Under the pieces are notes generated by a model. It was not told where the DNA came from. It searched no databases and worked only from the letters and a program-made list of their open reading frames with translations. A stretch of DNA of 64,000 bases from IMG/VR virus record IMGVR_UViG_3300031949_001696. One strand, given 5' to 3'. The position numbers were made by a program, and so were the translations under genes. The DNA comes from a virus. Its lineage: Duplodnaviria; Caudoviricetes. Shown here piece by piece: positions 1,211-34,509 of the stretch; the first letter of the stretch is position 1, and each line of letters opens with the position of its first letter.

Positions 1211-3517
1211 TCAGCGTTGTTTGCCGAGCGCAGCAACGGCGTTAGATCCCGCAACCGAGCGCGATGCCTTCGGTTTGACGGGCGCAAGTACCTGCGGGGC
1301 AGGTGTCGTCGGCACGGGCGGCACCGGTCCGTTCGAGTGACCGTGTCGATGCAGGAGGTTGCGGCACGCGTTCGCGTCCTGATCCCAGGTCTGACTGCAC
1401 GACGAGCAGGTGTGCTCGATCGCGGCTTTCGCGTCGAACACCTCGATCGAAGTGCACCACGCGCATTCGCGCGTCGAGTCCGCGGTCTCCTCGACCTCGA
1501 CGCGGGCACCGCGCTTGGGGGCGGCTTTGATGATCTCGGCGCGCAGCTCGCCCGGCGCGGCCAGCCGGCTCATCCGGCGTTGCTCTCGGCCCTCGGACGG
1601 GTCGCCGTCCTCGGGCTCTGGGCGCTCCCAGCCGTCGATTTCAGTTAGCTTCATCGTACCCCCGACCGATCCGCCGCCACCGCCCGCGTGGTCCGGGGAT
1701 CGGTTCGCACCGCCCTCAATCAAGATCATCGCGTAGGTATTCGTCAGCTCGGCGGCAAGCACGCGCCACGTCTCGCGACGGTGGGCGATCAGCCGATCGC
1801 GCTGGTGCTCCTGCCAGTTCTGGAGGTGGCGATCATGGCGCGCCCACGCCTGGAGTGCGGCGAGGATCTCGCTGTCGCCGGTGATCCTGTTCGCCTTCGA
1901 GCTGAAATCCGACGGGTTGCACTGCTTCTTCCCCGCAGCGCGCGCGGTACGCCAGGCATCCCAGTCGATCCCGGTCCACGCGTCGACGAGTGCCTGGAGC
2001 TTGCGCGGCGCGCGCCACTGCGCGAGGCCGGCGAGGCGATCTGTCAGGCCTGACGGCGTCTCCCGGTCGCGCAGCCACGTGACCAGCCGATCGCGTGCGG
2101 TCTCGAATTCCTTGTCGCGGGTTCCCGCCAGGTCGTAGACCTTGTCCATACCGAAGAGGAGCTTGTTCGGCACGCGGATCTCGCGCTCGCGCCCCGTGTC
2201 GTCGACGAGATAGCCGACGCGTAGGCCGATCTGGTTACCCTCGTCGTCGAACAGCCGCCGCCAGCTCAGGTCGATCGCGCATGCGCCCGTGCCGATCGCG
2301 TCCGGGCACGCGCGGAAGATCTCGCTCTCGATCGTGACCTGAAACCGCCACTCGTAGTGGCGGCCAACGCGCTTGCGCACGACGTACGCCCATTTGATCA
2401 CGGCGTCCTTCGGCAGTGGCCGATGAAGAGTGACCGGAAAGCGCGCGAAGATCGGTGATCGATCTGGGTTAGAGCCGACGCGGAGGTCGACGTATGTCCG
2501 TGCCGCGTGACGCCGTAGGTTGCGCGAGAGTTGAGGGACAGCTGCCCACGCCTCCTCTCGTGGCGGATGTTTAACTGCGCGGGAGCCGGGATCTTGCCGC
2601 GACAAGAGCTCGGGGACGGTGTCTCGATCGTCATCGTCACCTGATCGAGCAAAGATTTCGACTTCTGGACGCGGATGTTTGTCGCTCGCTCCAGGAGCAT
2701 GGATGCGAAGACGAGGATCCATGCACGAGAATGCCTCACGCACCGTCATGCCGCCGATGACCTGCGTACCGATCGATCCGGTACCGTCGCAGCGCTTGAA
2801 GTGCGGCGGATGCTTGGTCGACGCCGCGGCCTGCTTGAGCGCGGTTTCGACGCGGTCGTAGGTCCCGGTGCGCAGTCCTCGCGCGGAGTAGTCTGCACGG
2901 GAGGCGAGCCGCTTGGCGTGGGCTTGATCCCTCGCGTTCTGGTAACCCGCCGCGAGGGCGAGATCTGGTTCTACGGATTTGTGCAGTGCCGCGAACAACG
3001 TGCGCTTGGCCGCACTTAACTCGGCCTTGATCCGTTCGTGATCCTCCTTGGAGATCTCCGGATCCTTGAGGCGGCGCATCCTCGGACCGATCTCGGGATG
3101 CGCGAGAAGCACGTCTTGGAGATGCGCTCCTTGCGCGCGCTTCGCCTCGCGCAGATCGGACGCGAACAGCGCGCGAAGCTCCTTGGCGGCAGCGAGGCGG
3201 AGACGGTGCTCGGTCAGGTCGGGATCTGCCACGCCCGACTTCGCGGCGCGGAGGTCCTCGTACGCGTTTCCGACGTCGCCGTCCGCGCCCTCGTAGAGCT
3301 GGAGTGCCTTGCCGATGATCGGATGATCGAGTTGGACGCCGCGGAAGTGCTCTCGAAGGCGGATCTCGATCTCGACGAGGGCGTTGCGGTACTGCCCCGC
3401 GAGCCAGAACTGATCTTCGACGCGCTTGCCCTCGGTGATCGGAGGCAGGCAGCGGTACGAGTAGATCCGGGTGGGAACGTCGGATGTCTTCTTGCGGCGG
3501 GCGCGTGGCATTGACAT
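1211..3517 (-). CDS. cas12m: Type V CRISPR effector, Cas12m/V-U1-like (TnpB superfamily), ~768 aa, canonical RuvC D-E-D triad
   Basis: Motifs match Cas12m from memory: N-terminal YSY..P...EDQFWLA..YRNALV, HFKRCDGTGSIGTQ, VTLHRPLP, RuvC-I AIDLSWR, QWRAPRKL, RuvC-II ILIEG, AAPGELR, zinc finger CAWC..CSSC and RuvC-III WDQDANACRN. Directly adjacent to a CRISPR array. Start is probably ATG 3517 or 3511 (the ORF track extends to 3553). Confidence 0.85.
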   Translation of the reverse strand: MSMPRARRKKTSDVPTRIYSYRCLPPITEGKRVEDQFWLAGQYRNALVEIEIRLREHFRGVQLDHPIIGKALQLYEGADGDVGNAYEDLRAAKSGVADPDLTEHRLRLAAAKELRALFASDLREAKRAQGAHLQDVLLAHPEIGPRMRRLKDPEISKEDHERIKAELSAAKRTLFAALHKSVEPDLALAAGYQNARDQAHAKRLASRADYSARGLRTGTYDRVETALKQAAASTKHPPHFKRCDGTGSIGTQVIGGMTVREAFSCMDPRLRIHAPGASDKHPRPEVEIFARSGDDDDRDTVPELLSRQDPGSRAVKHPPREEAWAAVPQLSRNLRRHAARTYVDLRVGSNPDRSPIFARFPVTLHRPLPKDAVIKWAYVVRKRVGRHYEWRFQVTIESEIFRACPDAIGTGACAIDLSWRRLFDDEGNQIGLRVGYLVDDTGREREIRVPNKLLFGMDKVYDLAGTRDKEFETARDRLVTWLRDRETPSGLTDRLAGLAQWRAPRKLQALVDAWTGIDWDAWRTARAAGKKQCNPSDFSSKANRITGDSEILAALQAWARHDRHLQNWQEHQRDRLIAHRRETWRVLAAELTNTYAMILIEGGANRSPDHAGGGGGSVGGTMKLTEIDGWERPEPEDGDPSEGREQRRMSRLAAPGELRAEIIKAAPKRGARVEVEETADSTRECAWCTSIEVFDAKAAIEHTCSSCSQTWDQDANACRNLLHRHGHSNGPVPPVPTTPAPQVLAPVKPKASRSVAGSNAVAALGKQR

Positions 3518-3540
3518 CCTGTTAGCTGTTTGATAGACGT
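3511..3540 (+). promoter_or_regulatory. Putative sigma70-type promoter TTGACA-N17-TAGACG(T) for the RHH gene, overlapping the cas12 start codon on the opposite strand
   Basis: Perfect -35 TTGACA at 3511-3516 with 17-nt spacing. Almost the same element (TTGACA-N17-TACACGT) precedes the RHH gene of CRISPR locus 2. Confidence 0.55.
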
Positions 3541-3552
3541 TTTGCAAGACCA

Positions 3553-3717
3553 ATGTTTGAACCGAAGCGATCCAGCCGAGAGAGCCTAGCCAACTACATC
3601 GGCGCGCGCGTGACGAACTCCGAGGAGGCGTGGCTGCGCACCGAGATGAAGAAGCGGAAGCTTACGATGAGTGACTTGATTCGTCTGGCCCTCGGCCGAC
3701 TCAAGGAAAAGGTGTGA
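3553..3717 (+). CDS. Small ribbon-helix-helix (CopG/MetJ-like) DNA-binding protein, 54 aa (absent from ORF track)
   Basis: Manual translation MFEPKRSSRESLANYIGARVTNSEEAWLRTEMKKRKLTMSDLIRLALGRLKEKV: beta strand (YIGARV), helix, then a T-MSDLIR helix. Divergent from cas12. Confidence 0.7.
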   Translation: MFEPKRSSRESLANYIGARVTNSEEAWLRTEMKKRKLTMSDLIRLALGRLKEKV

Positions 3718-3724
3718 ATGCCCA

Positions 3725-4762
3725 GTGACGAAGCTCCTTACACGCAAGCAATTCAGTGATGGGTGTCTCGCACGTGATCGTCATCGTTGCGTGATGTGCG
3801 GTAGCACCGACAGCATTCATGTCCATCACATCGTCGAACGAAAGCTTTGGCCCAATGACGGTTTTTTCCTCGACAACGGCGCATCGGTCTGCGAGCCCTG
3901 CCACCTCCGAACCGAGTCAACGGAGATCTCGTGCGACGAGCTGAGGAAGCGCTGCGGCATCGACCGCGCGCACCTGCCCGATCACTTCTGTCCCGATGAA
4001 GTTATCGACAAATGGGGCAACATTCTCCTGCCTAACGGCCAGCGGCTGCGCGGCGAGCTGTTCGACGACGAGGGAGCGCAGAAGATCCTCGCACCCGTGC
4101 TCCATCTGTTCACGTCACGCGTGAAGTACCCGAGGACTTTTCATTTACCGTGGAGCCCAGGCAAGACGAGCGACGATCGGACGATGGACGACCCGGACGC
4201 AGCGTTCGGCGGTGCTGAGATCGTCGTGACCGAGAAGGTCGACGGTGAATGTTCGACGCTTTATCGCGACTACCTCCACGCGCGAGGCATCGACTACGCG
4301 TCGCATCCTTCGCGTGATCGTCTGCGCGCACTCCACGCCACCATCGCCCACGACATCCCTGAAGGATGGCGCGTGTGCGGCGAAAACATCTACGCCGTGC
4401 ATTCGATCGCGTACGACGCGCTCCCCGCGCACTTTCTGGTGTTCTCGATCTGGAACGAGCGAAACGAGTGTCTGTCCTGGGACGAGACGGTCACGTGTGC
4501 GCAGCTCCTGGGCCTTCACACTGTTCCTGTGATCGCGCGCGGGACGTGGAACGAGGAGCACGCGCGCCTCTCCGACGGCGAGGCCAAGAGTCAGCTCGGC
4601 GGCGATCGCGAGGGCTACGTCGTTCGCCTCGCGGGGGGCTTCCATTACCGCGCGTTCCGGCGATCTGTCGCCAAGTACGTTCGCAAGAATCACGTCCAGA
4701 CCAACGATCACTGGAAGACGCAGGCGGTGGTCGCGAACAAGCTGCGAGAGATCGCACCCTGA
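3725..4762 (+). CDS. HNH endonuclease domain fused to ATP-dependent RNA ligase domain
   Basis: N-terminal RD.HRCVMCG...HVHHI...DNGASVCEPCH (HNH). C-terminal KYPRTFHLPWSPG, TEKVDG (motif I KxDG), GEN, REGYVVR and KYVR. Confidence 0.85.
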   Translation: MTKLLTRKQFSDGCLARDRHRCVMCGSTDSIHVHHIVERKLWPNDGFFLDNGASVCEPCHLRTESTEISCDELRKRCGIDRAHLPDHFCPDEVIDKWGNILLPNGQRLRGELFDDEGAQKILAPVLHLFTSRVKYPRTFHLPWSPGKTSDDRTMDDPDAAFGGAEIVVTEKVDGECSTLYRDYLHARGIDYASHPSRDRLRALHATIAHDIPEGWRVCGENIYAVHSIAYDALPAHFLVFSIWNERNECLSWDETVTCAQLLGLHTVPVIARGTWNEEHARLSDGEAKSQLGGDREGYVVRLAGGFHYRAFRRSVAKYVRKNHVQTNDHWKTQAVVANKLREIAP

Positions 4763-4807
4763 TGAACGTCAGCGCACCTGTATGGAATGCGTATATACTG
4801 TTTGCGC

Positions 4808-5020
4808 ATGGCCGACAACGTCATCAAGATGAGCGTGAATCTTCCAACCGACGCCGTGAAAGTGTTGAAGAAGTTGGCCAAGAAGCGGGGATGCACGATG
4901 ACGGAAGTACTGCGGCAGGCAATAGGCACCGAAAAGTTCATCGAAGACGTGAACGAAGCTGAAGGCAAGGTTCTCGTCGAGGACAAGAGGGGCCGCGTTC
5001 GGCAGTTGGTTTTCAAGTGA
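4808..5020 (+). CDS. CopG-family ribbon-helix-helix protein
   Basis: KMSVNLP...LKKLAKKRGCTMTEVLRQAI pattern. TATACT -10-like box just upstream. Confidence 0.75.
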   Translation: MADNVIKMSVNLPTDAVKVLKKLAKKRGCTMTEVLRQAIGTEKFIEDVNEAEGKVLVEDKRGRVRQLVFK

Positions 5021-5871
5021 CTCTCCCAACGCACGTCGAAAACTTGCTCGCCAAAGCGCGCTGGCGACAAGAACTCAACAAGCGCGGCTACGAAGGAAGG
5101 CTACCCGTGGCATCTGAGCGTCTCGCAGAAGCACTTCGCACGGAACTCCGCGCGATCCTTGATAACGACGGCAAGCCGTTCGATCTTCAAGTTGCGCGGC
5201 ACGTCTACGACTTCGCGATCGCTGCAAAGGACTTGCTCACGGTGTCCGTGAAGACCGTCGAGGACGCGATGCGCGTGGTCGCCGACAACAACGGAGCCAT
5301 GGAATCCTTGACGGGAGCCGGCGATCCGCTGCCCCCCGAGGTCGCGAGCGAGACATTCGGTGCGCGCATCATGCGAGAGCTATTCGCCTTGATGCCCTCG
5401 GTCCTCCGCAAGAACAACGAGGATCCACTCGCGATCGTCGCCGCGATCGCCGACGCGCGCGAGCGCGGGATGCACGACGTGGCCGCCAAGCTCGAACAAA
5501 GGCTACTCGGCACGCCGCTCGAGCCGCCTAAGGTCACGATGACCGAGGTCGTCGACGACAGCTACGAGCACGGTTTCATCGACGGATCGATGCAGGACAA
5601 CTTCGACCGCGGCACCATCAACGGTCACGTGGCACGCGATCTGCGGCAAGCGTCGCCAGCATATCGTGAGGGCTTCGAGGCCGGACGAGAGCGTCGCGCG
5701 CTCAAAGATGCCGTCCCGCCGCCGGCTGTCACGCCATCGTCCATACGCGGAGTTGATATCTGCGCGGGCTGCGGCAATCGCGAATGTTTCAATGTCTGCT
5801 GTCATCCGTCGAACAAACTGCGTGCGTCGTCGAACGGGCAGCACAGCCTGCCCAATGGAGACTCGCCGTGA
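5017..5871 (+). CDS. Hypothetical protein
   Basis: Long ORF with GTGA overlaps at both ends within a + strand operon. Confidence 0.7.
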   Translation: MTLPTHVENLLAKARWRQELNKRGYEGRLPVASERLAEALRTELRAILDNDGKPFDLQVARHVYDFAIAAKDLLTVSVKTVEDAMRVVADNNGAMESLTGAGDPLPPEVASETFGARIMRELFALMPSVLRKNNEDPLAIVAAIADARERGMHDVAAKLEQRLLGTPLEPPKVTMTEVVDDSYEHGFIDGSMQDNFDRGTINGHVARDLRQASPAYREGFEAGRERRALKDAVPPPAVTPSSIRGVDICAGCGNRECFNVCCHPSNKLRASSNGQHSLPNGDSP

Positions 5872-6740
5872 GGGCCTGGTATGTGCCGAGCTGGAACGGC
5901 GATTTCCGGCTCACGCCCGGCGACGACGACGGCACGTCCAAGCTCCTCATCATGGCGCCGACGCCGCACGAGACGCAGCTCCTCGCGTCGTTCATGACGG
6001 TGGCACGCAAGAAGAAATGGTCGAAAGAAAAGCTGGCCAAGGACGAGGCGATCGACACTCGAACGATCATCCTTGACGCCCCGCTGACGAAGGTGGGACC
6101 AGCGCTCGTCAAGATCACCAAGCCGGTCGATCGCACGCTGACGGCGGTTTCATTCAAGAACGGACAGCTTGAAGTCGCCGAGACGGGCGCGATCGAGACG
6201 ATCATCGCCAAAGCGGATCCAGAATCTAAGGCCGTCAGCGTCGCGCGGCCGACGCCGTGCTGCCCATCGTGCGTACCCGGCTCCGTCGAGCCCGCTAGCG
6301 ACGTCCTGCTCTCGTTTCTCTCCGATCAGGAGCACGCCGACTGGGCGAAGCATCGCGCGATCATGGTGATGGGTGGCCGATCTGGGCATCGCTACCTGAT
6401 CGCGCACCGCCACTCACGGACGGCGGTGCTCAACCGCAAGATCTGTTACGACGTCGACGACCGCTGCGTGCTGCACTTCCACGACTGGACAGTGCCGCCC
6501 GAAGAAGAGGTCCTCGCGACCAAGCTCATCCTGGAGCACCGCGAGGCGTGGTTGCGCAACGAGGCGACCGTCTTGCAGCAGGACGGCAAGGGCGAGTGGC
6601 ACGATCTTGGTATTATGCGTTACAAGAACCCGTTCGGTGACGCGAGCGACGGCCGGGACGACGCCGCATTGACGGCGCTGCTGGGGGCTGTCCTCGCGGC
6701 GGCCTTCAACGGAGACGTGCCGCGGGGAGAGCGCCGATGA
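5868..6740 (+). CDS. Hypothetical protein
   Basis: GTG start overlaps the previous stop; ordinary globular composition; overlaps the next ATG. Confidence 0.7.
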   Translation: MRAWYVPSWNGDFRLTPGDDDGTSKLLIMAPTPHETQLLASFMTVARKKKWSKEKLAKDEAIDTRTIILDAPLTKVGPALVKITKPVDRTLTAVSFKNGQLEVAETGAIETIIAKADPESKAVSVARPTPCCPSCVPGSVEPASDVLLSFLSDQEHADWAKHRAIMVMGGRSGHRYLIAHRHSRTAVLNRKICYDVDDRCVLHFHDWTVPPEEEVLATKLILEHREAWLRNEATVLQQDGKGEWHDLGIMRYKNPFGDASDGRDDAALTALLGAVLAAAFNGDVPRGERR

Positions 6741-8026
6741 AGCCGCGACTGCCTTCCGTATCGTCGGACGCACGCACCGTGCTGCCTGGGCGCGAAGTCA
6801 CCTATCACGAGGTGCCAACGAAGCCCGAGGTCAAGCGTGACCGTGGGAGCCCTGCGCATGACATGCGGCTGATCGTCATCAACGTCCTGACCGGCGTGCG
6901 TGCGCGCTGGGGTCGACTCTCCGTCACCGACAAACGGAAGATCGTCTCCCACCTGCGATCGGTCGCCGACCTCATCGAGAAGGCGATCGGAGGCGACGCT
7001 CCGTGAAGCCTCCCGCGCCGCAGCGCCTCCTCTGCCAGCGCGTGCGCGACACCTTCCCGCAGCGCGATGGCGTGAAGAGCGGCCTCGATCATTGCTCCCA
7101 GTGCGGGGAGCGCGTACGCGTCGCGGACACGTCGCGCGACGCCATCAAGATCTACGCGCAGGCAGAGATCTGGTGCCTCGACTGTTGCGCCCAAGATCCG
7201 CCGCCGAGCGGCATCGAGTGGGAATACACCGACGCGCAGATCGCCGAGATCGCTCGCGTGACGGGCAAGCCACCTGCTGAGATCGTCGAACAGCTCACGG
7301 CAGTTCTACCGTCGCTACGAAAGCAGAGGCCCCAAGACACATGATCGATCGCGCGACCGGCGAGCAGCTCTATCCGTGCTCCGACTGCGGTGTGCTCCGC
7401 ACGAAGGCGGAGGGCGGCACCGTGTTCACGGTGTGCGACGACTGCTGGGACAAGCATCATCCACCATGCGAGTCCATCGGCGCGAAGCTTCTCTCGGCAA
7501 CGCGCGAGCAGCTGTCCCGAACGTCAACTGTTCAGGCAAGTTCAAAGGCTGAGCGTCAACCGCCCAAGGGGCGCATCATGATCACACCGCGCCCCTTCGT
7601 GCTCGATCCCGGAGAGGCATGCTGGTGCAACCGCGGCAAGGACTGCGACGGTAACCACGAGATCTACCTCGACGAGCCTGTTCACCGCTGCGGGTTTTGC
7701 GGCAAGACGTTCGAGATCAAACCCGACGATCCGCACTGGTCGACCGGCCGGGGACCTCTCTGCCCGACCAGAGGACGCTTGCGTACCTGGCTCACCCAGA
7801 CGGGCCGCTTGAAGTCCGTGCCGCAGTTCGTGTCGCCGCCGAGAACCAAGGACAAATCGTGACGCAGTCGAAGCAAGACGACACGCAAGAGCTTCGCCGC
7901 CAAGCGTTCCGGCTGATCACGCTCTCGTACGCGTTGATGATCGCGATCATCCTCGGCGTGGCTGCCGTGATCGTCGCGCGGACGTTGGCACCTGAGTGCG
8001 TGTGTCCGACCGCGGAGAAGGGGTGA
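6737..8026 (+). CDS. Run of four small coupled hypothetical ORFs (6737-7006, 7003-7344, 7341-7862, 7859-8026), several with CxxC zinc ribbons, the last with one TM helix
   Basis: Consecutive ATGA/GTGA stop-start overlaps and CxxC pairs. Confidence 0.6.
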
Positions 8027-8029
8027 TCG

Positions 8030-9453: not shown

Positions 9454-9661
9454 GTGGCCTCGGTGCCCAACCCTGAAAAGAAGTACCGTCTAGCGCGTGA
9501 CGTGTTCGGGCGTTGGATCATCGTCCATCCAGAGCACGCTTCTCGGGCGTGGTCCGGTTCATGCTGGGTTCCTCACTACAGAGGCGTCGGCAAGATCGCC
9601 CAGGTCTCGAACTTCGACACCCGGCCGCCGACGAGACAGCCAGGGAGCAGATCGCGTGACG

Positions 9662-14179: not shown

Positions 14180-14186
14180 ACGAACG

Positions 14187-18803: not shown

Positions 18804-19988
18804 ATGACGATCATCGGTGGCCTCTGCTGTGGCGGTTGCGGCTGCGGTGATTGCGAGGGCGAGTGTGGTGAGCGGGGCAAACGTGGCAAGCGCGGTCACC
18901 GTGGTCACGATGGACTCGACGGCGCGACAGGACCGACGGGACCGACGGGACCGACGGGACCGACCGGCGCAACCGGCGTCGGTACGACCGGACCCACAGG
19001 ACCGACGGGGCCGAGCGACGGACCGACGGGCCCGACGGGTCCGACAGGTCCGACAGGTCCGACAGGAGCGACGGGTCCGACAGGTACCACGGGCGTCGGC
19101 AGCACGGGTCCGACAGGTCCGACGGGGCCGAGCGACGGACCAACGGGCCCGACGGGCGCTACTGGCTCGCCAGGAACGCCAGGCGGTCCCACGGGACCGA
19201 CGGGACCGACGGGATCGAACTCGGGAATTCTGGCAGCGCTCACGCTCACACCACCGATCACGGCAGCGCTCGCGGGCGGCGACAACAACGACTTTGCTCC
19301 GGCCGGTGGCGGAACTTCGAGCGTCTGGCGTCTGACCGGTGGTGGGATCAGCGGATCGACCATCACCGGTATGTTGACCGGCGGCGCGAACACCGATGGG
19401 CGGGTCGTCGTCGTCGAGAACGTCGGCATACTCAACATCTCGTTCACGAATCAAGACGTGAACTCGGTGGCAACGAACCGCTTTGTTTTCCCTGCGGCCG
19501 CGAGCTCGTTCGTGATTCCGAGTGGGGGCACCGCCGCGTTCATCTACGACGGGACGACGGCACGCTGGCGAATGCTGGCGATCGTTTCGCCGACACTACC
19601 CCTCACCACCATCAGCACCGCACTGGTCGTCCAAAGCTCGATCACCGCCTTTGGTGCGATCACGGGGCAGTCCACGACGGTGGCCGCGGCGGGCGCGCAG
19701 AACGACTACAACCCGGCCGGTAACTGGCCCGGGAACCAGAACCTCTTCCTCGCGGCAGGTGTCGCGCTCAGCATCACTGGTTTCGATGCGACGGGCGTCA
19801 ACGCTGGACAGGTCATCAATCTCATCAACACGAGTGCGGCGGACTCGTGCACGCTCGTGCACAACAGTGGCGCGTCACTCGCAGCGAACCGGCTCTTCTT
19901 GCCCAACAGCGTGAACTTCGTGGTGCCGCCAAACGGTGCCGTCAGCCTCGTTCGTACGTTCACGGGCGTCTGGCAAGTGATCGGCTGA
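18804..19988 (+). CDS. Collagen-like fibre protein (Cys-rich/basic N-terminus, GPT repeats, two beta-rich C-terminal repeats)
   Basis: Long G-P-T triplet run. Duplicated C-terminal module (NDFAPAG../NDYNPAG..; NRFVFP/NRLFLP). Confidence 0.85.
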
Positions 19989-26200: not shown

Positions 26201-27807
26201 CACGCACCGGAAACGTACACGCGGAAAGCTCGGCGGCATTCATGCTACGGACCTGGTCACTTGGGACTCGATGCCCACTCGATCATGGTCCGTGCTGCGT
26301 GATCGATCGCTTCGCGCAGCGTGTCGGGATCGTGGGGCTGCGCGATCTCTTCGCTGCGAATCGGATCGACCCACTCCTCGGTGTCGTACTCGCCGAGGTA
26401 GAGCGGACCGTCCATCGCGGTCGCGACGATCTCGCGGTTCGCGGGCGTGACGGTCGTGGTCATGATGAGCGCGGCGCACATGCCACCGGTCTGCGCTAGG
26501 TGGCAGCCGTGCGGACCTTCCCAGGCCAGTTCGGAGATCCGGTAGTGGAGGCGCTGGAGGATCGCGACGTCTGCACGGATCCAGCAGGGCTCGCGGCAGG
26601 TGTCGCACATGGCGAGTAGGTCGCCCTTGGGACAGTCGACCAGCGCTTCGACGTCGAGCGTGCGGAGCTTCGTGAGCCGCTTCTCGTAGTGCGCTCCCTG
26701 CCCCGGAGACTCTTCGAGCTTCTTCTTGTCACAGCCGAGACAGACGATCGCCGCCCACGGCGTGAAACACCCTTGCTTGACGTTCAAGCTGTTCATGGCT
26801 CTCCTCGCGTTTCCAAGATCTCGATCTCGATGCCGGCCCCGATCCCCTGGTAGTAGCGGCGCTCTTTCTCGGCGAGCTTCTCGGCGAGCTGGAGAGAGCC
26901 ACAGAAGCCTGCGAGACACCACTTGCCGTGATGGTGTTTGCATTCGTAGCCATGGTTCGCCTCGTGCGCGGCGGTGAACGTCGGACGGAAGGCCACCACG
27001 TGCGAGTAGACGCGCGCGGTCCCGCGCTTGATGATGCGACCGTCGGGCAGCGTGGCGTAGTAGGTGGTCTTCTTGGTCGACATGGTCGTCACGGCTCCAG
27101 CGTGATGGCGAGAGCGTGCCCGGCGTCGGTCAGCTCGCACGTCCAGCGCTCGCCATCGGATCGACGGCCCAGCTCTCCGTTGTCTTCGAGCTTCACGAGC
27201 CCGGCGGCTTCGAGCGATCGCGCCACCCGGACGTCGGAGCCGGTGACGTAGAAGCCGCGGCCGAGCACGTACTTGAGGAGGGCGCGCCGGGCCGGCGTGA
27301 GGAACTTCGCGAGTTCGGCCGCTGGTGTGGTCTCGGTGATCTTGGCGGACGTCTTCATGGAACCTCCGCCGTCGTCGTCGTTACCGTCGCGGGCGCCACC
27401 TTCGCGACGACCTGCCCCTTCCCTTCGACCAGAGACTGTTTCGCCCGCGCGGCGCGGATCGCTTTCTTGGCCGCGCGCAGCGTAGAAAATGCCTTGTCGG
27501 CCTTGTCCGAGAACAAGCCGCCGATGTGCGCGACGTCGTCAGCGCCCTCGGTGATCACGATGCCGCGGTGCTGCCGTCCCGGACGAGGATCTTGCACGAA
27601 CGCGACGTACGAGTCTGGCCGGCTCGTGCCCTCACCGCCGCGTCCGCTATAGAAGCGCGTGCGGTCGTACGCGATCTTGACCCACGCGACCGCGGCGTCG
27701 GTGTTGAGATCGCCGTCGGCGTTCCGCTCCTGATCGACGGGGATCAGGTACAGGTCCTCGTGGGGATCGTAGCCCTCGCGGAACCACTTGAGCTTCGGCT
27801 TCGTCAT
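23236..27807 (-). CDS. Minus-strand run of small hypothetical phage-like ORFs (e.g. 23236-23838, 23991-24179, 24186-24434, 24742-25094, 25345-25746, 26010-26243, 26257-26797, 27089-27358, 27355-27807)
   Basis: Tightly coupled starts and stops; no family recognised. Confidence 0.55.
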
Positions 27808-28358
27808 GCCAGTAGGTAGAGCAGGGAGCGTGCCCGAGCGCGGCCGAGCTAACTCCAGCAGTCGCCAGCTGGGTAGCGGCATACCCGTCTTCCGGTCGTC
27901 ACGATCGTCACGAGCAGCGTGGTCCTCAAGATACTGGGTCTCGGGTACCCGGGCAGTGGCGACCGCAGCGACGACGCGAGCTTGCTCGAACATCCGCCGC
28001 GGTAGGTAGGTCGCCGATCCGACGTGCCAGGTCGTGGAACGCCGACTGCAACCTCGTCGGAGCATGCATGACGACAAGCAATATGTCCTGGTCATCAAGA
28101 ACAAGGGGATCGCCTTCGGTCCGCTGCTAACACGCGACGCTGCGGAGTACGCCGCGCAGGACTACTACGGCACGGCGATCACGGGTGCGAGCGTGAAGGA
28201 CGAGTTCCTGATCGTCGAGCTGCGGCCTGTCGATCCTGTCGCGCTATCGCGCGAGCACGTCGCACACGTGGCGGCCCTGTTGGTCCGCGATGACGAATGA
28301 CTGGTTCGTTCGCGGCTCGCAAGAGATCACCCGCGCAAGGTAAGCTCGACAAAGGACA

Positions 28359-29063
28359 ATGCCGAAGAAGACCGCCGCCCGACTAGATCGCGAGATTGCG
28401 GAAGCGCTCAAGCCTCGCCCACGCAGACACCACGCGACGATGAGTGACTCGTGGAACGTCGCGATGGACGCTCTCTTCGAGCGCGATCCCAAGAGGGCCG
28501 CCGACATCGTGCGGCAGATCCGCGAAGAGCATGGAGCCGCGGTGAAGACGCCCGAGACGTTCAAGGATGCGATGCGCGACGTTCCAGACGCCGTGCGGCA
28601 GCAGTTCAGTTCCGAGCTGCTACGTCCACGCACCGCACGCAACATTGACGTGGGGTCTCACGTCGAAATTCCAACGCATCGCTCGCATGGCGAGGTCATC
28701 AAGATCTATCAAGACAAGGCGTTGGTGCGAATGGCTTCGGGCCTCACGGATCGGTTCAAGCTGGCCGACCTCAAGCTTGCCGGTGTTCGAGGATCACGTT
28801 CAGCGCGACACCATTCAACGAAAGGCTCGGAGCAGATCCACGCGCTTTCGGCCGATCAGCTCGAAGCGCTGCGCGCGTTCGCTGAGGAAAACGGTCGCTC
28901 CTGGAAGTCCAAGCTCAACACCGCGTGGTCGACCGGCCGTTACGACGACTATAGCGGCACCGACGACTACGGCAGCTTGCAGCAGGTCCGCAACAGGTTC
29001 GGACCGGCATGGCTCTCCAGATTCTCATTCGACCGCATCAAGACACACAGCGTGCAGGGCTAA
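28359..29063 (+). CDS. Multi-module protein with N-terminal KKTAARLDREIAEAL tag and a KOW/SH3-like module
   Basis: Shared tag. RHHAT and RHHST linkers. IDVGSHVEI...GEVIKI..ALVR beta barrel. Confidence 0.75.
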   Translation: MPKKTAARLDREIAEALKPRPRRHHATMSDSWNVAMDALFERDPKRAADIVRQIREEHGAAVKTPETFKDAMRDVPDAVRQQFSSELLRPRTARNIDVGSHVEIPTHRSHGEVIKIYQDKALVRMASGLTDRFKLADLKLAGVRGSRSARHHSTKGSEQIHALSADQLEALRAFAEENGRSWKSKLNTAWSTGRYDDYSGTDDYGSLQQVRNRFGPAWLSRFSFDRIKTHSVQG

Positions 29064-29365
29064 TCGAGAAGACACCTGGCGAGTGACGCATCGCGCTGAT
29101 TATTCGTGCGCTCCGCGCTCGACCGGCTCAAGCGCAGAAAGCTCGTCGTGACCACGCGAGGCATCGATGATCGTGGGCACGAGACGACGTTGTGGGAGCC
29201 CGCGACCTAGCTGGCGGAAGAGGAAGCGGCTCGCACTCCGTGTTAACGTCGAAGCATCCAGTGACAATAAAGAAGATCCACGTGGTCGCCGCAGGGGGCC
29301 TCTTCGGCGTCGGCCTACTCATATGGCGTGCCGCCCGACAAGCCGATCAAGAGAGGAACACTCCG

Positions 29366-29611
29366 ATGGCGAAGAAGACGCGCGCGCAGCTCGATCGCGA
29401 AATCGCCGCGCACCTGCGCCGGTACGGACTACCGAATGGTCGCGCCAAGGGCCGCCACCCCAGCGAGTTCGACCCGGTCCAGCTTCGTCGCGGAATCCAG
29501 GTCGAGCTGGAGCACACGAGGGACCCCGAGATTGCCGCGCGGATCGCGATGGATCACCTGGTCGAAGATCCGCTCTACTACGTGAAGCTCGCGACGATTC
29601 ACGTCGACTGA
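29366..29611 (+). CDS. DUF5661-like protein with N-terminal KKTRAQLDREIA tag
   Basis: FDPVQLRRGIQVELEHT.D..IAARIAMDHL.EDPLYYVKL. GAGAGG RBS upstream. Confidence 0.75.
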   Translation: MAKKTRAQLDREIAAHLRRYGLPNGRAKGRHPSEFDPVQLRRGIQVELEHTRDPEIAARIAMDHLVEDPLYYVKLATIHVD

Positions 29612-29637
29612 ACTGAAGAACTTAAAGGGTGAGCTAG

Positions 29638-30339
29638 ATGATGCCATCAATACTACGCTGGAAGAAGGTTGCGGCCGGCGTCTACCACGCGACCTCTCCG
29701 TGGGGCCTCTACACCATCGACGGTACAGGCAGCTACGGGCGGAATCGCTGGACGGTGACCTATCCAGACGGCGACTACGGGATGGCCGACGCACTCGCAG
29801 AAGCCATGCTGTGGGCCGAGTCGGATGCAGAGGAGCGCACTCGGCAACGCGGCTCCGCAGCGCACGCCACGAAGAAGATGCCTGTTGTCGGCCGCAGGTC
29901 CGCGCGCCGCCACGCGGTGATCACCGACGTCGCCGATGACGACAAAGAGCGGGTGATCGCGCTGCTCGGCCAGCGAGACGCGAGCGCGCGTCAAGTGGCG
30001 CGCGACCTACTGCTCCAGCGGGGCATGATCCAGACGGGGCGGGTCAAGCAGCTGATCCCGATCGGCGATTCGTTTTCTGGTTGGATCTTCATGGCCGAGA
30101 TCACGGGACTGGGCCGCTTGGCGGGACCTTCCGGCCATCGATTCTGGGTGGTAGCGCCGTCCTTCAAGGTCGGAGACGTCGTCGACTTCACGACCACGCG
30201 AGAGCCTCCGCCTACGGGCAAGGGTACGAAGCCCAAGCCCCCGACGCAGCAGCTTCATCCAGTCGGGATCTTGACCACGAGCGCGGTCTTTCCCGAGTCA
30301 GTGATTCGGCGTTGGGTCGAGAAGTGGTGGATCGAATGA
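29638..30339 (+). CDS. Hypothetical two-module protein (AHATKK linker)
   Basis: ORF with plausible composition. Confidence 0.6.
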   Translation: MMPSILRWKKVAAGVYHATSPWGLYTIDGTGSYGRNRWTVTYPDGDYGMADALAEAMLWAESDAEERTRQRGSAAHATKKMPVVGRRSARRHAVITDVADDDKERVIALLGQRDASARQVARDLLLQRGMIQTGRVKQLIPIGDSFSGWIFMAEITGLGRLAGPSGHRFWVVAPSFKVGDVVDFTTTREPPPTGKGTKPKPPTQQLHPVGILTTSAVFPESVIRRWVEKWWIE

Positions 30340-30821
30340 AGAAGTCATGCTGACGGTATCGAAGGAAGGTCGTCGCGTTGCCGCGATGGTGCTGAACAGC
30401 GCCGTGAAACGGTGTGCGTGGCACAACTCCCCGGGAATCGAGAATCGGATCGTGCAACCCGCGGCCCGCGGCCCAACCAGAACGCGGACGGTCGATCAGG
30501 CGCGCAAGTTGGCTTCAGGCAGCGACGTCGCTTAGAGGTGATAGAGTTTGATCCTTTGGGGCCGGCTACGGGGTGGGCAGCGGTGGCCTCGGCGGACGCG
30601 AGCTGACGGGACGAGAGGTCGTTGTCTACGGCGGCTTGTTGCTGGCCGTTGTCTACTTCGGCCTCAAGGCACTCCCCGACAAACCACCGCAAAGGCCAAC
30701 ACCGCAGCCTTCCCGGCCGACACCGGAACAAAAACCCGTCTCGGTAACATCGGGCCGTGGCATCTATCGATAGCGTGCGTGTCAGATCCAGCCTCGTTCG
30801 GCGTCATGGAGCTAGAGATCC

Positions 30822-31190
30822 ATGTCCATTACCATCAAGCTGCGCGTCACGGTCATCGATGCCACGAACTACCTGTTCGAACTCGTCGATCACGGCGATC
30901 CAAGTTTCACTGCGATCTGCACTGCCTTCTTCGAGGGGCTACAGACCCACGGCGAGGTAAAGCGATGTCCCGAAACAATCGGCGCGATCAGAACGGCGTT
31001 CGTGAGGACCGATCTGTCTAACCATGAATTTCTGGCGAAGGCCGACGAGCTTTTTCGTGACAATGCACGCGCATTCGATCGCGGGCATCACCACATCAAG
31101 AGCTGGGGCGGCGAGAGGCTATTCAAGGAACCATCATCAGGTCCCGCGGAGCTGCTGCCGTCTGCCCGTCACCTTTTGAAGTTGTGGTGA
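30822..31190 (+). CDS. Hypothetical protein
   Basis: ORF convergent with the sigma factor gene. Confidence 0.55.
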   Translation: MSITIKLRVTVIDATNYLFELVDHGDPSFTAICTAFFEGLQTHGEVKRCPETIGAIRTAFVRTDLSNHEFLAKADELFRDNARAFDRGHHHIKSWGGERLFKEPSSGPAELLPSARHLLKLW

Positions 31191-31199
31191 CGTGCGCAG

Positions 31200-32938
31200 T
31201 TAAGCAGCGACGTCGTCTTCGATCTCGTCGAGCGCTTGCCGCAGGACCGCCAGGGCCTTCTTCTCGAGCTGCCGGATGCGCTCGCGCGAGAGCCGCATGG
31301 CCTTGCCGACCTCCTTCAGCGTCTCGGGTTCGGAACCGCCGAGCCCGAAGCGCCTCTGCACGATCTGGACGAGCAGCGGCGGTAGACGAACGAGCACCGC
31401 CGCGAGCTGGTCGCCTTCCTCACGCGTCGACAGGATCTCGTCGGCGAGGGCGTCTTCGCTGGCGAGGTAGCTGGGAGTCTCTCCCTCCTCGCTGCCGACC
31501 GAGTCAAACGCGGGAAGCGTCTCGCGGTGCTTGAGCCAGTCGCTTTCCAGCGTCTTGAGGCTCTGCTCGGAACCTTGATCGCGCTCGCGAGCTCGCGGCG
31601 ATCCGGATCGCGGCCGAGCTTCTTACGCAGCTCGACCTTCGCACGCCGGACCTTGGAAGAGAGGTCGTGCAAGTGGACGGGCACGCGCACCTCACCGCTG
31701 TTCTGCCGCGCGCGGACGAGGTAGTGGCGGATCCACCAAGTCGCGAAGGTCGAGAAGCGCAAGCCCCGACGGTAATCGTAGCGTGAGATCGCCTTGAGCA
31801 GACCGAGGTTTCCCTCCTGGATGAGGTCGCTCATCGCGAGGTTCGTCTTGAGGTGATAGCCGTGTCGGCGGATCGTTGACGGCACCAGGCGCAGGTTGCA
31901 GATCGTGAAGCGCTCGCGGATCCGGTCAGCCTCGGCGGCGATCGTGCGCAGCGCGGCGAGTTCGGGAACCAGGCGCTTGTCCTTGGGATCGGCGCTCTCG
32001 ATCACGCGCGTCGCGATCAGGCGATCGAGATCTGCCGCGCGAGCCTCGCCGGCGTCCTTCGCCGCGACCGGCGAATCGAGTCCCAGCAGCAGCTTCTGTG
32101 CCTCGGGCGCCAACGGGCCGTCCATCAGGCGCGCCCAGAGCGCGATCTCGACTTCCTCGAGACGCCGGGACAGCTCTAGCTCCTCGGCTCTGGTCAACAG
32201 GTGATGCCCGCTGATCGCCGACGCATAGATCTGCGCGGCGTCCGGCGGCGCCGTTCGAGTGCGGCTATCAGAATGATCTTCGTCTCGCGTGATGCGGGTA
32301 CTGTTTGTTCGCGCGGCCTCCGGCGGTGCCGATCGAGTGCGGCTATCAGAATGATCTTCATCGCGCATGATGCGGGTACTGTTTGTTCGCGCGGCATCCG
32401 GCGCCGCCGTACGTCCACGGCCAGGATGATCCTCGTCGTCGTCGCGTTTGTTGCGACGAGGCGCCCGCGTCGCGGGTTCCCGCTTCCCGGCCGATCCGGA
32501 TCGTGTGCCCCCTGCGGCCGACGCGCGCGTGTGGCGGCGTCCGCGACCGTTCCCTTCCGATCGCAGGAGGCCCATCTTGCGCAACGTGAAGATCTCGGTG
32601 TGGAGGGTCCCGCGGTTGACCGGACGGTGCTCCTCCAGCTCGCGGCGGATCTCCATGGTCGACCGGGCCTGGCCATCGGAGAGTAGGCCCAGCACGGCCT
32701 CACGGAGCGATCCGCTCGGCGGCTCCTTCGCCGGCGCGGCGAGAAGAAGTGGGGCACCCCGCACGCCACCCGAAGAGAGTTCGGCCATGTCGCCGCCCAG
32801 GTCACCCTCGATCGTCGCGAGGAAGTGCCCGTAGTCCGAGGGCGCGAGGCGGCGGAACGCGGAGACGGCCTCGTCGATCCGCGCGCGCTGGTCCTGGCCA
32901 GCTCGCAGATGCCGCACGATCGGAGAGTCGTCGCCCAC
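31200..32938 (-). pseudogene. RpoD/RpoS-like sigma-70 factor with N-terminal winged-helix extension; single-base frameshift at ~31570 separates region 4 (may be a sequencing error)
   Basis: Region 1.2 LLTRAEELELSR, region 2 NLRLV..DLIQEGNLGLLKAISRYDYRRGLRFSTFATWWIR and region 3 VRVPVH..LGRDP. Region 4 RRFGL..TLKEVGKAMRLSRERIRQLEKKAL is in another frame. Restoring one base at GTT CC GAG rejoins them. Confidence 0.88.
32241..32408. repeat. 69-bp (23-aa) tandem repeat, ~2.4 copies, in the sigma factor linker
   Basis: AARTNSTRI.RDEDHSDSRTR.APP repeated in protein and DNA. Confidence 0.9.
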
Positions 32939-34305
32939 GCGTACGTTCTACACGAAGAGACCGACGATGCGCGAGGGTGCTTTGTCTAGGGAGATCTCAC
33001 GCCGCGCGGGTAGTATTCGGAGCATGAGCAAGAAGACCCAGCCCGGCGATCAAGTCGTGATCACGCACGGTGACAAACGCGTCGAGGGCACCGTGCGCCG
33101 CGTCGGGTGCAGCGATCCAGATTGCCCGTCGTGCGAGGGACACTGGAAGGAAGAGGTGACACCGCCGCCGACGCTGGAGCGTCGGCCGAATTAACCATGC
33201 TTGTCCGGTTGTCGCCCACGATTCGCGCATCGGCATTTTCAGCTCTCCCCAGACCGACCATTATCCGTCGCCACGAACACCCTTGACGGATTTCCGCATC
33301 CAGCGCACACACGCGCCGCCTGCATGGCCGCGAGCGCCTTGACCTGGAGCAACGTCCACAGGTTCGATCTGTCTTCGGGATTCAGGTGAAGGTCACCGCA
33401 GTGCGGGCATGGCAGCCGGCCGAAGCCAGGCAGTGACCCATCGGGCAGTATGGCAGCGAGAAACACCGCAGCTCTCATGGTTCGCACGTCCTTGGGCAAC
33501 AACCGGATAGGCACGGAATTAACAATCGGCGCTCATCAAACAGCTTCGGGATCGGAGATCGCGTTCCAGCTCATGGTCACGAGCACCATCAGCGGGATCG
33601 GTTGACGCTGTAGCGGCTGACGGCCGGCGCGCTCCCACGCCAGGCTCTGCTCGTCGTGCAGGTCGGAGTCCACCACGGCCTCGACGCTCATGCGCAGCGG
33701 CGTGAAGGTGATCCGCAGCTTCGCCAGGTCGTCGAACGGCACCGGGCCCTTGTGCATGAACTGCATGTCGCCGTCGGACCAGTGGTCGAACGTCCAGCCC
33801 CCAAGGCCCGCATACGCGAGTGCTTTCTCGACGTCGGCGGCGGTCCACTCGTCTCGCCAGGACGCGAATTCGTGCAGCCTTTTGTGTTCGATCATGGGAT
33901 TCCTTTCTCCGTCGCAGCCTGGCTGTCGAGCTTCCCTATCGGGCAATCCCCGTAGTGACCGTGCGACGGATGATGCTGGCAGAAGAGGCAGAAGTCCGTC
34001 TATGTTCGAGTCTTCCAGTACGTAGCAAGCGCCATCAGGAATGCATCGGCATCCCCGTTGGAAATGTCGAGGTACAGCGCGGTCGCGTTTTCGCGGTCGG
34101 TGTAGACCGCGAGGCTGGTCGCTACGCGTTTATCGACGGCAACGAAGCCTTCCTCGTCGTCGTCCCTGCACCATTCGCAGTGATCGACCTTGGCCAGCAC
34201 GATTACGATGCGGGTGCCGATCCACACCATCCACACCCCGGAGTTGTCCATCGTCATCGCCCTTTTCCTGCCGATGACTCGATCTCTAGCACGGTTAAAC
34301 GCGTG

Positions 34306-34335
34306 TTGACAATGTCTCCACGGCTGTGTACACGT
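34306..34335 (+). promoter_or_regulatory. Putative promoter TTGACA-N17-TACACG(T) for the RHH-cas12m-array operon
   Basis: Perfect -35 box with 17-nt spacer. Parallels the element at 3511. Confidence 0.55.
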
Positions 34336-34341
34336 CGTGAG

Positions 34342-34509
34342 GTGCCGATCCGGAGATCCAACGACCTCCACATCCGTCTCAAACCAACAGAGAGTCGCGC
34401 ATGGCGAGCTGCTGCGAAACGCGCGGACGTGACACTCAGTGATTGGGTACGTCAGCTCGGCAACGCTGCCGCAGTTCCACCACCTGTCGCCACGAAAGAA
34501 GGGAAGTGA
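34342..34509 (+). CDS. Small ribbon-helix-helix protein, 55 aa, directly upstream of cas12m
   Basis: MPIRRSNDLHIRLKPTESRAWRAAAKRADVTLSDWVRQLG..: beta strand LHIRL and TLSDWVR helix. Stops 3 nt before the cas12m ATG. Confidence 0.75.
   Translation: MPIRRSNDLHIRLKPTESRAWRAAAKRADVTLSDWVRQLGNAAAVPPPVATKEGK

Follow-up and report, generated by a model that had tools for sequence, protein, structure and literature searches.

Tiny RHH genes recur upstream of cas12m in giant phages and probably encode repressors that limit effector levels

Each of the two cas12m genes in the analysed DNA, a 64,000-nucleotide stretch of a giant soil phage of the Caudoviricetes (the window), lies beside a tiny ribbon-helix-helix (RHH) gene with a promoter-like motif of its own, and a survey of 23 distinct phage-type loci found a small RHH gene at most 1 kb upstream of cas12m in 14. 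As the pairing recurs in related phages, these RHH proteins probably act as repressors that keep effector levels in check, a kind of regulation previously described for other Cas12/TnpB genes.

Table 1. Features of the two cas12m loci in the window
Feature	Position	Strand	Basis or remark
CRISPR array 1, 36-nt repeats	30..1146	-	15-16 copies found, last ends 1146
cas12m-1, 766 aa	1211..3511	-	PDB, PADLOC, Pfam matches
Control region common to cas12m-1 and RHH1, 41 bp	3512..3552		
P(RHH1), predicted	3511-3540; -35 TTGACA 3511-3516; -10-like TAGACG(T) 3534-3540	+	
cas12m-1 promoter, predicted	TTGCAA 3547-3542, N17, TAACAG 3524-3519, N7, ATG	-	
Pseudo-palindrome GTTTTGCAAGAC	3539-3550		inside 41-bp gap of locus 1
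RHH1, 54 aa, family A	ATG 3553 to TGA 3717	+	
HNH + RNA-ligase fusion gene	3725..4762	+	Pfam RNA_ligase 1.5e-32, HNH 5.7e-6
Third small RHH gene, CopG type, 77 aa	4787..5020	+	Pfam RHH_1 1.6e-4, above cut-off
85-aa gene, function not assigned, divergent from RHH2	34000..34257	-	sequence reading
P(RHH2), predicted	34306..34341 (motif 34306-34335); -35 TTGACA 34306-34311; -10-like TACACG(T) 34329-34335	+	
Palindrome GTGTACAC	34326-34333		within P(RHH2)
RHH2, 55 aa, family B	GTG 34342 to TGA 34509	+	first cistron of predicted cas12m-2 operon
cas12m-2, 691 aa	34513..36588	+	PDB, PADLOC matches; alignment to cas12m-1
Array 2 leader, 25 nt, conserved motif CTTTGACAAC	36589..36613	+	
CRISPR array 2, 36-nt repeats	36614..40428	+	about 52 copies

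On sequence grounds, both large genes are identified as relatives of Cas12m (V-U1/V-M), each with its own array. The PDB search matched cas12m-1 to Cas12m 23vw (E 1.7e-51) and Cas12m2 8hhl (3e-16), and cas12m-2 to 23vw (1.8e-20); PADLOC Cas12u1 matched both (9e-73 and 8.8e-39, respectively), and cas12m-1 has a Pfam TNB domain match and 76 homologues. In a pairwise alignment of the two proteins, the RuvC positions read D-E-D in cas12m-1 (AIDLSW, LIEGG, DQDAN) and H-D-D in cas12m-2 (AVHIGW, ASDN, DQDLT), and the two subfamilies they represent are only 26% identical. An array directly after the effector gene and an altered RuvC triad, with DNA bound but not cut, are traits of type V-M. Array 1, oriented by comparison with the repeats of L014 and L001, begins 64 bp past the end of cas12m-1 and extends beyond the first position of the window. 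Array 2 is separated from cas12m-2 by the 25-bp leader, whose motif is kept in L020, L033 and L024 and where a search for a terminator-like site found none. A September 2026 preprint (10.64898/2026.09.14.751636) claims to be the first to report Cas12m from a phage.

Structural models and sequence conservation identify both small ORFs as real genes for RHH proteins that are predicted to bind DNA. Members of the RHH superfamily (MetJ/Arc/CopG) share a core of some 45 residues built as strand–helix–helix, are obligate homodimers and bind a repeated operator. The AlphaFold models of RHH1 and RHH2 (pLDDT 78 and 81) both place two helices after an extended N-terminus (H22-35/H39-53 and H15-27/H32-44); the monomer models contain no strand, as expected, since dimerisation completes the RHH fold. 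In Foldseek searches of both models against PDB the top ranks were all RHH proteins (NikA, PutA RHH, TacA, Arc, CopG, ORF56), with probability up to 0.99, TM of 0.6–0.8 and rmsd of about 1 Å, and many of the nearest structural matches were RHH antitoxins (TacA, AtaR, MazE, VapB). Pfam NikA-like gave sub-threshold scores of 16.4 bits for RHH1 (E 0.01) and 22.4 bits for RHH2 (1.4e-4) against a cut-off of 27, the ORF56 family scored 18.5 bits (cut-off 50), and the RHH profile reached NikA among PDB sequences at E 0.06; no RHH family score attained its curated Pfam/NCBIfam cut-off for either protein, and PHROGs gave no match for them. Among the 15 family members, 8 are matched by Pfam NikA-like (best E 1.2e-5), and all 15 align to one beta-alpha-alpha pattern with the alternating hydrophobic strand pattern kept. 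RHH1 and family C have essentially nothing beyond the 45-residue DNA-binding core, and family B proteins end in a conserved, proline-rich tail that is dispensable for the fold; it reads AAVPxPPPVPPVVxGDQ in L014, L020 and L031 and is shorter in the window protein. BLASTP found no similarity between RHH1 and RHH2; as the two are unrelated in sequence, duplication of a single module is ruled out.

The sequence-only reading had placed both RHH ORFs, and a TTGACA-N17-TA(G/C)ACGT motif upstream of each, at the coordinates confirmed here (Table 1). It also saw the -35 box overlap the cas12m-1 start codon, and indeed the first T of the RHH1 -35 box is the T of that start (CAT 3509–3511 on the + strand). 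Its description of the promoters as near-identical holds for the two hexamers and their spacing but not for the 17-nt spacers, which agree at 5 of 17 positions. The pattern, which was defined post hoc, has just these two matches in the window even at one mismatch (0.03 expected); as both strands of the 64-kb window hold 7 TTGACA and 8 TA(G/C)ACGT, two equally spaced co-occurrences are far beyond chance. With a perfect -35, a 17-nt spacer and a TA-initiated -10, the two sites are predicted to be near-consensus sigma-70-type promoters, and we infer their activity from this anatomy. The -10-like hexamers, including that of the putative cas12m-1 promoter (TAGACG, TACACG and TAACAG), all end without the conserved final T, which is why a consensus promoter scan calls neither RHH site. 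A TTGAC(A/T)-N17/18-TAnnnn element precedes nearly every RHH gene of the related loci. When a shared operator repeat was sought at the promoters, none was convincing; the palindromes present were short and not the same from locus to locus.

In locus 1, cas12m-1 and RHH1 diverge from the common 41-bp gap, and the cas12m-1 transcript is predicted to be leaderless. The cassette is kept in L001 and L034; its TTGCAA element is missing from L056, where cas12m is not adjacent, which fits TTGCAA being the cas12m-directed -35. RHH1 (GC3 0.78) heads a long co-directional gene string that includes the third RHH gene, which has a PHROG Arc-like repressor match (2e-3). The first cargo gene after RHH1 varies among loci: the HNH–RNA ligase fusion in the window, repeats in L001 and a 120-aa gene of no known function in L034. 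The neighbours of the RHH genes in the window are cas12m, this fusion gene and genes without assigned function.

In locus 2, the GTG start of RHH2 lies 7 nt past the -10, its transcript is likewise predicted to be leaderless, and its stop falls 3 nt before the cas12m-2 ATG. The divergent 85-aa gene on the other side has a GC3 of 0.78 and no match in a Pfam search. RHH2 itself has an atypically low GC3 (0.55, compared with 0.75–0.82 in neighbouring genes) and is enclosed in a 229-codon open frame, and a GC3-based gene filter passed it over; nevertheless, homologues in six further loci (L014, L020, L028, L029, L030 and L031) preserve both its frame and its N-terminus.

A neighbourhood survey of Cas12m homologues, as the sequence-only reading had proposed, run here for small RHH genes, bore out the pairing in the 14 phage-type loci, half of them with the RHH gene as a co-directional first cistron; the other 9 of the 23 lack an RHH gene in the 1 kb before cas12m. 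The RHH genes of the 14 loci fall into four sequence families with no fixed pairing to either cas12m subfamily: RHH1-type genes stand beside cas12m-1-type (window, L001) and cas12m-2-type genes (L034), and RHH2-type genes beside cas12m-2-type (window, L020) and cas12m-1-type genes (L014, L029, L030). Two more RHH-A/cas12m pairs are suggested by shared contigs of 2493 and 3835 bp. A profile of these RHHs had only three further matches in about 308 kb (loci plus window), and when the window's 45 other small ORFs were compared with RHH families, only 1 matched. The RHH partner was left uncalled by gene callers in several loci, so neighbourhood surveys restricted to called genes will miss such small partners. 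Outside the phage-type loci, no annotated RHH lies next to cas12m in three plasmid Cas12m loci, the RHH profile has no match in 21 bacterial-genome loci, and no RHH was seen among the upstream ORFs inspected in 17 of those 21. The proposed conserved module of RHH, Cas12m and array is thus upheld as an adjacency in phage-type loci, where arrays come after most of the cas12m genes surveyed, but it is neither universal to Cas12m nor exclusive to it. The RHH1 family has 251 members that are 70–86% identical, and the one in L056 (76% identical) sits amid unrelated genes, between cpYpsA and DnaJ; it retains its own TTGACA promoter, and no cas12m lies closer than 6 kb. As the family also occurs in a locus without cas12m, the RHH genes are portable promoter–regulator cassettes of this giant-phage clade, not dedicated cas genes.

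We favour, with moderate confidence, a reading in which the RHHs of both loci are dimeric repressors of their own promoters and cas12m has repeatedly been placed under such portable cassettes. RHH1 and RHH2 would each be transcribed from their own sigma-70-type promoter, which the RHH dimer would bind to give negative feedback; the leaderless starts, the operators and the repression are all read from the anatomy. In locus 2, RHH2 would come first on a leaderless RHH2–cas12m-2 transcript that may extend into array 2, so that by repressing itself RHH2 would directly limit how much effector is made. In locus 1, the RHH1 and leaderless cas12m-1 promoters would overlap in the same 41 bp on opposite strands, and a single bound repressor, for example at GTTTTGCAAGAC, could shut both. 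It is a doubtful extension that the RHHs are true accessory parts of giant-phage type V-M, forming a self-limiting switch for the dose and timing of a DNA-binding effector with at least 50 guides, the RuvC triad of cas12m-2 being altered. There, cas12m would be shuffled among interchangeable RHH–promoter cassettes, and the switch would be tied to effector load or orientation through the conserved family B tail or through the flipped 14-bp promoter spacer of family A.

Alternatively, the RHHs may regulate their own accessory operons, as aca-like genes with swappable cargo, and lie next to cas12m through a shared insertion hot spot or hitch-hiking in a variable part of the genome, with no regulatory effect on it. 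Since RHH1 heads a long co-directional string and RHH1-family genes head operons without cas12m, cas12m need not be the main target. The large, highly conserved RHH1 family, the promoter-bearing L056 gene, the different gene downstream of RHH-A in every locus and the 1870 representative proteins that match an RHH2-type profile all agree with this, and an RHH-type Aca regulator governing several operons is known (bioRxiv 10.64898/2026.07.27.740549). However, the RHH gene is co-directional and 3–52 bp upstream of cas12m in locus 2, L019, L020, L030 and L031, which makes a shared transcript almost certain. The RHH promoter itself contains the cas12m start or putative -35 in locus 1, L001 and L034, so that binding there cannot be neutral. 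In addition, RHH genes of four unrelated families have come to occupy one and the same position beside two cas12m subfamilies. We consider this alternative possible but unlikely.

It is improbable that the RHH targets the Cas12m protein, inhibiting it like an antitoxin or serving as its partner, instead of or besides DNA. RHH–TnpB toxin–antitoxin pairs have been proposed (Altae-Tran et al. 2023, PMC10691335), and both the antitoxins among the nearest structural matches and the conserved family B tail, not required for the fold, would suit such a role. RHH1 and family C, however, offer essentially no extension past the core for a contact, one RHH family serves two such divergent cas12m subfamilies and is also found without any cas12m, and the divergent layout is typical of regulators, not of toxin–antitoxin pairs. 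That one or both ORFs are chance frames in GC-rich DNA with a coincidental motif match is scarcely credible: the low GC3 of RHH2, its enclosing open frame and the sub-threshold family scores would allow it, but the proteins are conserved (36–86% identity over many loci), the fold matches are RHH only, RHH1 has a GC3 of 0.78, and the motif pair far exceeds random expectation.

The repressor reading can be set against several known systems. The RHHs share size and predicted fold with P22 Arc/Mnt, CopG, ORF56 of pRN1 and the NikA N-domain, and such classical stand-alone repressors give the best structural matches, with NikA-like proteins and ORF56 best in sequence; unlike them, the phage proteins score under family cut-offs, have no PHROGs match and occupy a different genomic role. 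As in the RHH/MazE–TnpB pairs (PMC10691335), an RHH gene can directly precede a TnpB-lineage gene in the same orientation, but those pairs are archaeal and array-less and are proposed to act as toxin–antitoxins via protein–protein contact. The window genes do not qualify as such pairs, as both have long arrays and locus 1 is divergent. Aca autorepressors, including the RHH-type Aca14 (bioRxiv 10.64898/2026.07.27.740549), likewise combine a small conserved regulator, a strong phage promoter and variable cargo, with negative feedback limiting the early expression burst and one regulator possibly controlling adjacent operons; here, however, the cargo is a CRISPR effector plus other genes rather than an anti-CRISPR, and the RHH gene is first in its unit where the Aca regulator is last.

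The closest parallels in layout involve other TnpB-lineage genes. In IS605-family transposons, the Arc protein represses tnpB and binds an intergenic region where two divergent promoters overlap (Moon et al. 2026, bioRxiv 10.64898/2026.09.24.754181); it too is encoded by a tiny, often unannotated RHH gene, in the same arrangement as locus 1. Its binding is experimental and that of the phage RHHs is predicted from anatomy, and IS605 has TnpA/TnpB and omega RNA where the phages have a CRISPR effector and array. In cas12k CASTs, Arc-like RHH genes (53–72 aa, usually divergent) and MerR regulators lie upstream of cas12k, mRNAs are leaderless, and regulators of several unrelated types, independently acquired, occur in 86 of 118 systems (2023, PMC9938897). 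The phage loci resemble them in that a small RHH gene directly precedes the type V effector gene in a majority of cases but not in every one (14/23), in the several unrelated regulator types and in the leaderless mRNAs, which are predicted here. They differ in that the effector is Cas12m, accompanied by long arrays and carried by giant soil phages, instead of Cas12k on a Tn7-like transposon in cyanobacteria, in having no transposition genes, and in that half of the cases are co-directional first cistrons. The Arc-type regulators of type V effectors and TnpB, such as Arc_1/Arc_2 of the cas12k CASTs, belong to the Arc, RHH_5 and PHA01623 families; of the 15 phage RHH family members, 0 matched Pfam Arc or RHH_5 at E ≤ 0.05. 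In a whole clade of giant phages, most Cas12m genes are wired to a tiny repressor-type gene. If the RHHs throttle expression, this would explain how phages avoid self-harm from a tight-binding effector and would offer compact orthogonal promoter–repressor pairs for the Cas12m base- and epigenome-editing tools in present use. It would also extend the rule seen in Cas12k transposons and IS605 TnpB, that effectors of the TnpB lineage tend to carry a small RHH brake.

The window is a portion of a 332,853-bp metagenome contig and contains two separate type V loci, each with a small ribbon-helix-helix (RHH) ORF, RHH1 or RHH2, beside its cas12m gene. Database matches identify both large proteins as relatives of Cas12m: PDB entry 23vw ('Cas12m') matched cas12m-1 at E 1.7e-51 and cas12m-2 at E 1.8e-20, Cas12m2 (PDB 8hhl) was matched at E 3e-16, and PADLOC Cas12u1 matched the two at 9e-73 and 9e-39, respectively. 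They share only 26% identity, and the aligned RuvC positions are D-E-D in cas12m-1 and H-D-D in cas12m-2. The operon headed by RHH1 also includes a gene that fuses an HNH endonuclease with an RNA ligase (3725-4762) and, after it, a third small RHH gene, of CopG type, that scores above the Pfam cut-off (4787-5020). Long 9-nt repeat runs at 18912-19227, and at 9534-10115 of L007, close to cas12m on a related contig, encode Gly-X-Thr collagen-like tracts, which probably belong to a fibre protein.

Features of the two type V loci, in window positions
Locus	Feature	Size	Position	Strand or start
1	array 1	36-nt repeats	30-1146	read on minus
1	cas12m-1	766 aa	1211-3511	minus
1	gap, cas12m-1 to RHH1	41 bp		
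1	RHH1	54 aa	3553-3717	plus
2	85-aa gene	85 aa	34000-34257	minus
2	gap, 85-aa gene to RHH2	84 bp		
2	RHH2	55 aa	34342-34509	GTG start
2	cas12m-2	691 aa	34513-36588	
2	leader	25 nt	between cas12m-2 and array 2	
2	array 2	~52 repeats	36614-40428	

Sequence scores for RHH identity were suggestive, with Pfam NikA-like at E 0.01 for RHH1 and 1.4e-4 for RHH2 and NCBIfam ORF56 at E 1.5e-3, all below cut-off. AlphaFold models built from a 15-member alignment (pLDDT 78 for RHH1 and 81 for RHH2) both have an extended N-terminal segment followed by two helices, and their top-ranking PDB fold matches are RHH throughout (NikA, the PutA RHH domain, TacA, Arc, CopG and ORF56), with TM 0.6-0.8 and ~1 Å across 36-41 residues; for such a small domain, the E-values of these matches are weak. 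RHH1 and RHH2 have no detectable similarity to each other. All 15 RHH sequences align on a common strand-helix-helix pattern and 8 of them match Pfam NikA-like; PHROGs returned no match for any of the four cas12m-adjacent families described below. GC3 is coding-type for RHH1 (0.78) and not for RHH2 (0.55), and the frame, start and sequence of RHH2 are conserved in six other loci. Outside the DNA-binding core, RHH2-like proteins have a conserved proline-rich C-terminal tail, AAVPxPPPVPPVVxGDQ-E-L/M (L014:4348-4611, L020:3740-3964, L031:924-1142), which is reduced to AAAVPPPV in RHH2 itself.

The metagenome protein set holds 76 homologues of cas12m-1 and 12 of cas12m-2, many on contigs of 100-460 kb. 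Loci (L numbers) were gathered by profile scan and exact-protein look-up, and the upstream DNA was read by eye because several small RHH ORFs had not been called. A small RHH-like ORF lies within 1 kb upstream of cas12m in 14 of the 23 distinct loci whose upstream sequence is long enough, showing that the association is present in homologous loci and that the pairing genuinely recurs in this phage clade. These genes form four sequence families. Family A (RHH1-like; window locus 1, L001 and L034) is always divergent from cas12m. Family B (RHH2-like) is co-directional with cas12m in window locus 2, L020-22 and L030 and divergent in L014 and L029, with more distant second copies in L031 and L028. 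Family C (VLVQVKIS...YLRALIYRDL; L007, L008, L009, L012 and L031) and family D (L019) are co-directional.

The partners are crossed: family A adjoins a cas12m-1-type gene in the window and L001 and a cas12m-2-type gene, 70% identical to cas12m-2, in L034, and family B adjoins the cas12m-2 type in the window and L020 and the cas12m-1 type in L014, L029 and L030. Such combinations speak for a functional basis of the pairing and against mere co-inheritance. Two controls support RHH enrichment beside cas12m: the profile of cas12m-adjacent RHHs found only three further matches in ~308 kb of loci and window, a control biased to the seed families, and among 45 other small window ORFs an unbiased Pfam scan picked out only the CopG-type gene as RHH. 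Scans of viral contigs with the single proteins P0001 and P0002 gave no close relative, and a profile scan gave one locus. On a 461-kb contig (L002:1-9600), a cas12m-1-type gene lies between two long arrays, whose repeats are of the cas12m-2 type upstream and of the cas12m-1 type downstream, so the two systems can be immediate neighbours. In L001 (700-870, minus), a 24-nt partial CRISPR repeat directly follows the RHH stop, then 98 nt and a full repeat with two mismatches; read from the RHH promoter, these have the crRNA sense; they lie on the cas12m flank opposite to the array side in window locus 1 and could be a mini-array or array remnant co-transcribed with the regulator.

The conserved RHH + Cas12m module proposed by the sequence-only reading holds as a recurrent arrangement in the phage clade, but it is neither universal to nor exclusive to Cas12m. 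In the other nine related loci, the 1 kb upstream of cas12m contains no RHH; there the gene is preceded by an array (L002), belongs to a different operon (L028) or carries a TTGACA promoter of its own (L024, L032). No annotated RHH adjoins Cas12m on plasmids from Allomeiothermus and two Mycobacterium species, the RHH profile had no match in 21 distant Cas12m-like loci of bacterial genomes, and no RHH was seen among the upstream ORFs of 17 listed bacterial-genome loci, two of which have small HTH-like ORFs instead. By reverse look-up, family A comprises 251 proteins 70-86% identical to RHH1. One member (L056, 76% identical) is surrounded by unrelated genes (cpYpsA, DnaJ), and no cas12m occurs within 6 kb of it. 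Two more adjacent pairs with cas12m are implied by small contigs of 2493 and 3835 bp, several large contigs (e.g. the 231-kb contig of L003) are implied to carry both genes non-adjacently, and second cas12m or RHH copies are attributed to 231-kb and 302-kb contigs. A reverse scan of viral contigs with the family-A alignment found no relative. The family-B profile matched 1870 representative proteins at E ≤ 0.001, 36 of them at E ≤ 1e-10. The large families and the member without cas12m point to portable regulators, not dedicated cas genes. Family A is conserved far better than the adjoining cas12m genes (40-66%), and its downstream neighbours are different at each locus seen.

The coordinates, lengths and motifs of both RHH ORFs and promoters proved exactly as first read. 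TTGACA-N17-TA(G/C)ACGT occurs in the window only at 3511-3540 and 34306-34335 (0.03 expected), each directly before the small ORF beside cas12m; given the rarity of its parts (TTGACA 7 and TA[GC]ACGT 8 occurrences on both strands), this double co-occurrence lies far beyond chance. The description of the promoters as near-identical applies to hexamers and spacing but not to the spacers, which match at only 5 of 17 positions. Nearly all surveyed RHH genes are preceded by TTGAC(A/T)-17-18 nt-TAnnnn, ending 6-12 nt before the start codon. A consensus promoter/terminator scan called nothing at either RHH site or the array 2 leader, and no terminator-like site between cas12m-2 and array 2; it reported neither RHH site because their -10-like hexamers end in G, without the final T. 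At locus 2, the RHH2 GTG lies 7 nt past the -10-like box, which predicts a leaderless mRNA, and cas12m-2 starts 3 nt past the RHH2 stop after an AAGGGA Shine-Dalgarno-like run. At locus 1, the -35 box overlaps the cas12m-1 start as claimed, sharing the T of CAT (3509-3511, plus strand). The opposite strand reads TTGCAA-N17-TAACAG-N7-ATG(cas12m-1), so that two putative promoters would lie back to back in the same 41 bp.

This cassette is near-invariant in L001 and L034, and its right half, GTTTTGCAAGAC, is a 10/12 pseudo-palindrome spanning the putative cas12m -35 together with the transcription start predicted for RHH1. L056, with no divergent cas12m, lacks this half and keeps the RHH promoter, which fits TTGCAA serving cas12m. 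Candidate family-B operators are short palindromes at -10, namely GTGTACAC (window), TAGCTA (L020) and ACGTAATTACGT (L014). One operator common to both window promoters was rejected: the match is confined to the hexamers, and family-B relatives have not preserved the ACGT that follows TA.

Other features of these regions were also observed. The 14-nt family-A promoter spacer TCCTGTTAGCTGTT (window 3517-3530) is exactly inverted at L034:1945-1958 (AACAGCTAACAGGA) between otherwise conserved flanks, and L056 has a third variant with the core CTAACA in common; the spacer may be orientation-free or invertible. At L032:3440-3501, CATTGACA-N18-TAGGGT drives cas12m directly and a 157-aa gene begins at its CAT and runs divergently, a mirror image of window locus 1 without the RHH. 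A TGACAAC motif is conserved 5-12 nt before the first repeat of both array types (CTCTTTGACAAC, type 2; TGACAACTGAATAG, type 1) at window 36598-36609 and 1150-1170 (minus) and in L020, L033, L024, L014 and L001; the TTGACA at 36602 is part of it, and a matching -10 at the usual spacing is absent. A 540-aa sigma-70 family protein (31316-32938, minus; regions 1.2, 2 and 3 detected), 1.4 kb from the RHH2 promoter, might read TTGACA-type promoters.

The best reading of this promoter anatomy, by analogy with known systems, is that a dimeric RHH repressor acts at its own strong promoter in negative feedback. At locus 2, RHH2 feedback would throttle cas12m-2 directly and probably array 2 also; at locus 1, RHH1 would co-repress cas12m-1. 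We consider it less likely that the RHH is a general phage regulator without effect on cas12m, or that it is a protein partner of Cas12m, as proposed for RHH/MazE-TnpB (PMC10691335). crRNA-guided self-regulation within the window was rejected, as array-spacer matches elsewhere in the window do not exceed chance (best match 19/21 nt, about chance level for 61 queries). The autoregulated module of the sequence-only reading is partly supported, its regulatory part being a prediction from promoter anatomy.

Our literature search found no report linking Cas12m with an RHH, and the Cas12m literature examined does not mention neighbouring regulators; phage-borne Cas12m was first claimed only in September 2026 (10.64898/2026.09.14.751636). 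The proposed feedback mirrors three known systems. In V-K transposons, cas12k is preceded by Arc-like RHH or MerR regulators that were acquired independently several times, and the mRNAs are leaderless (PMC9938897); IS605 Arc represses tnpB and binds an intergenic region in which two promoters diverge (bioRxiv 10.64898/2026.09.24.754181); and phage anti-defence operons are under the control of Aca14, a regulator of RHH type (bioRxiv 10.64898/2026.07.27.740549). If repression holds, RHH-cas12m would be a further instance of this known kind of effector regulation by small RHH genes.
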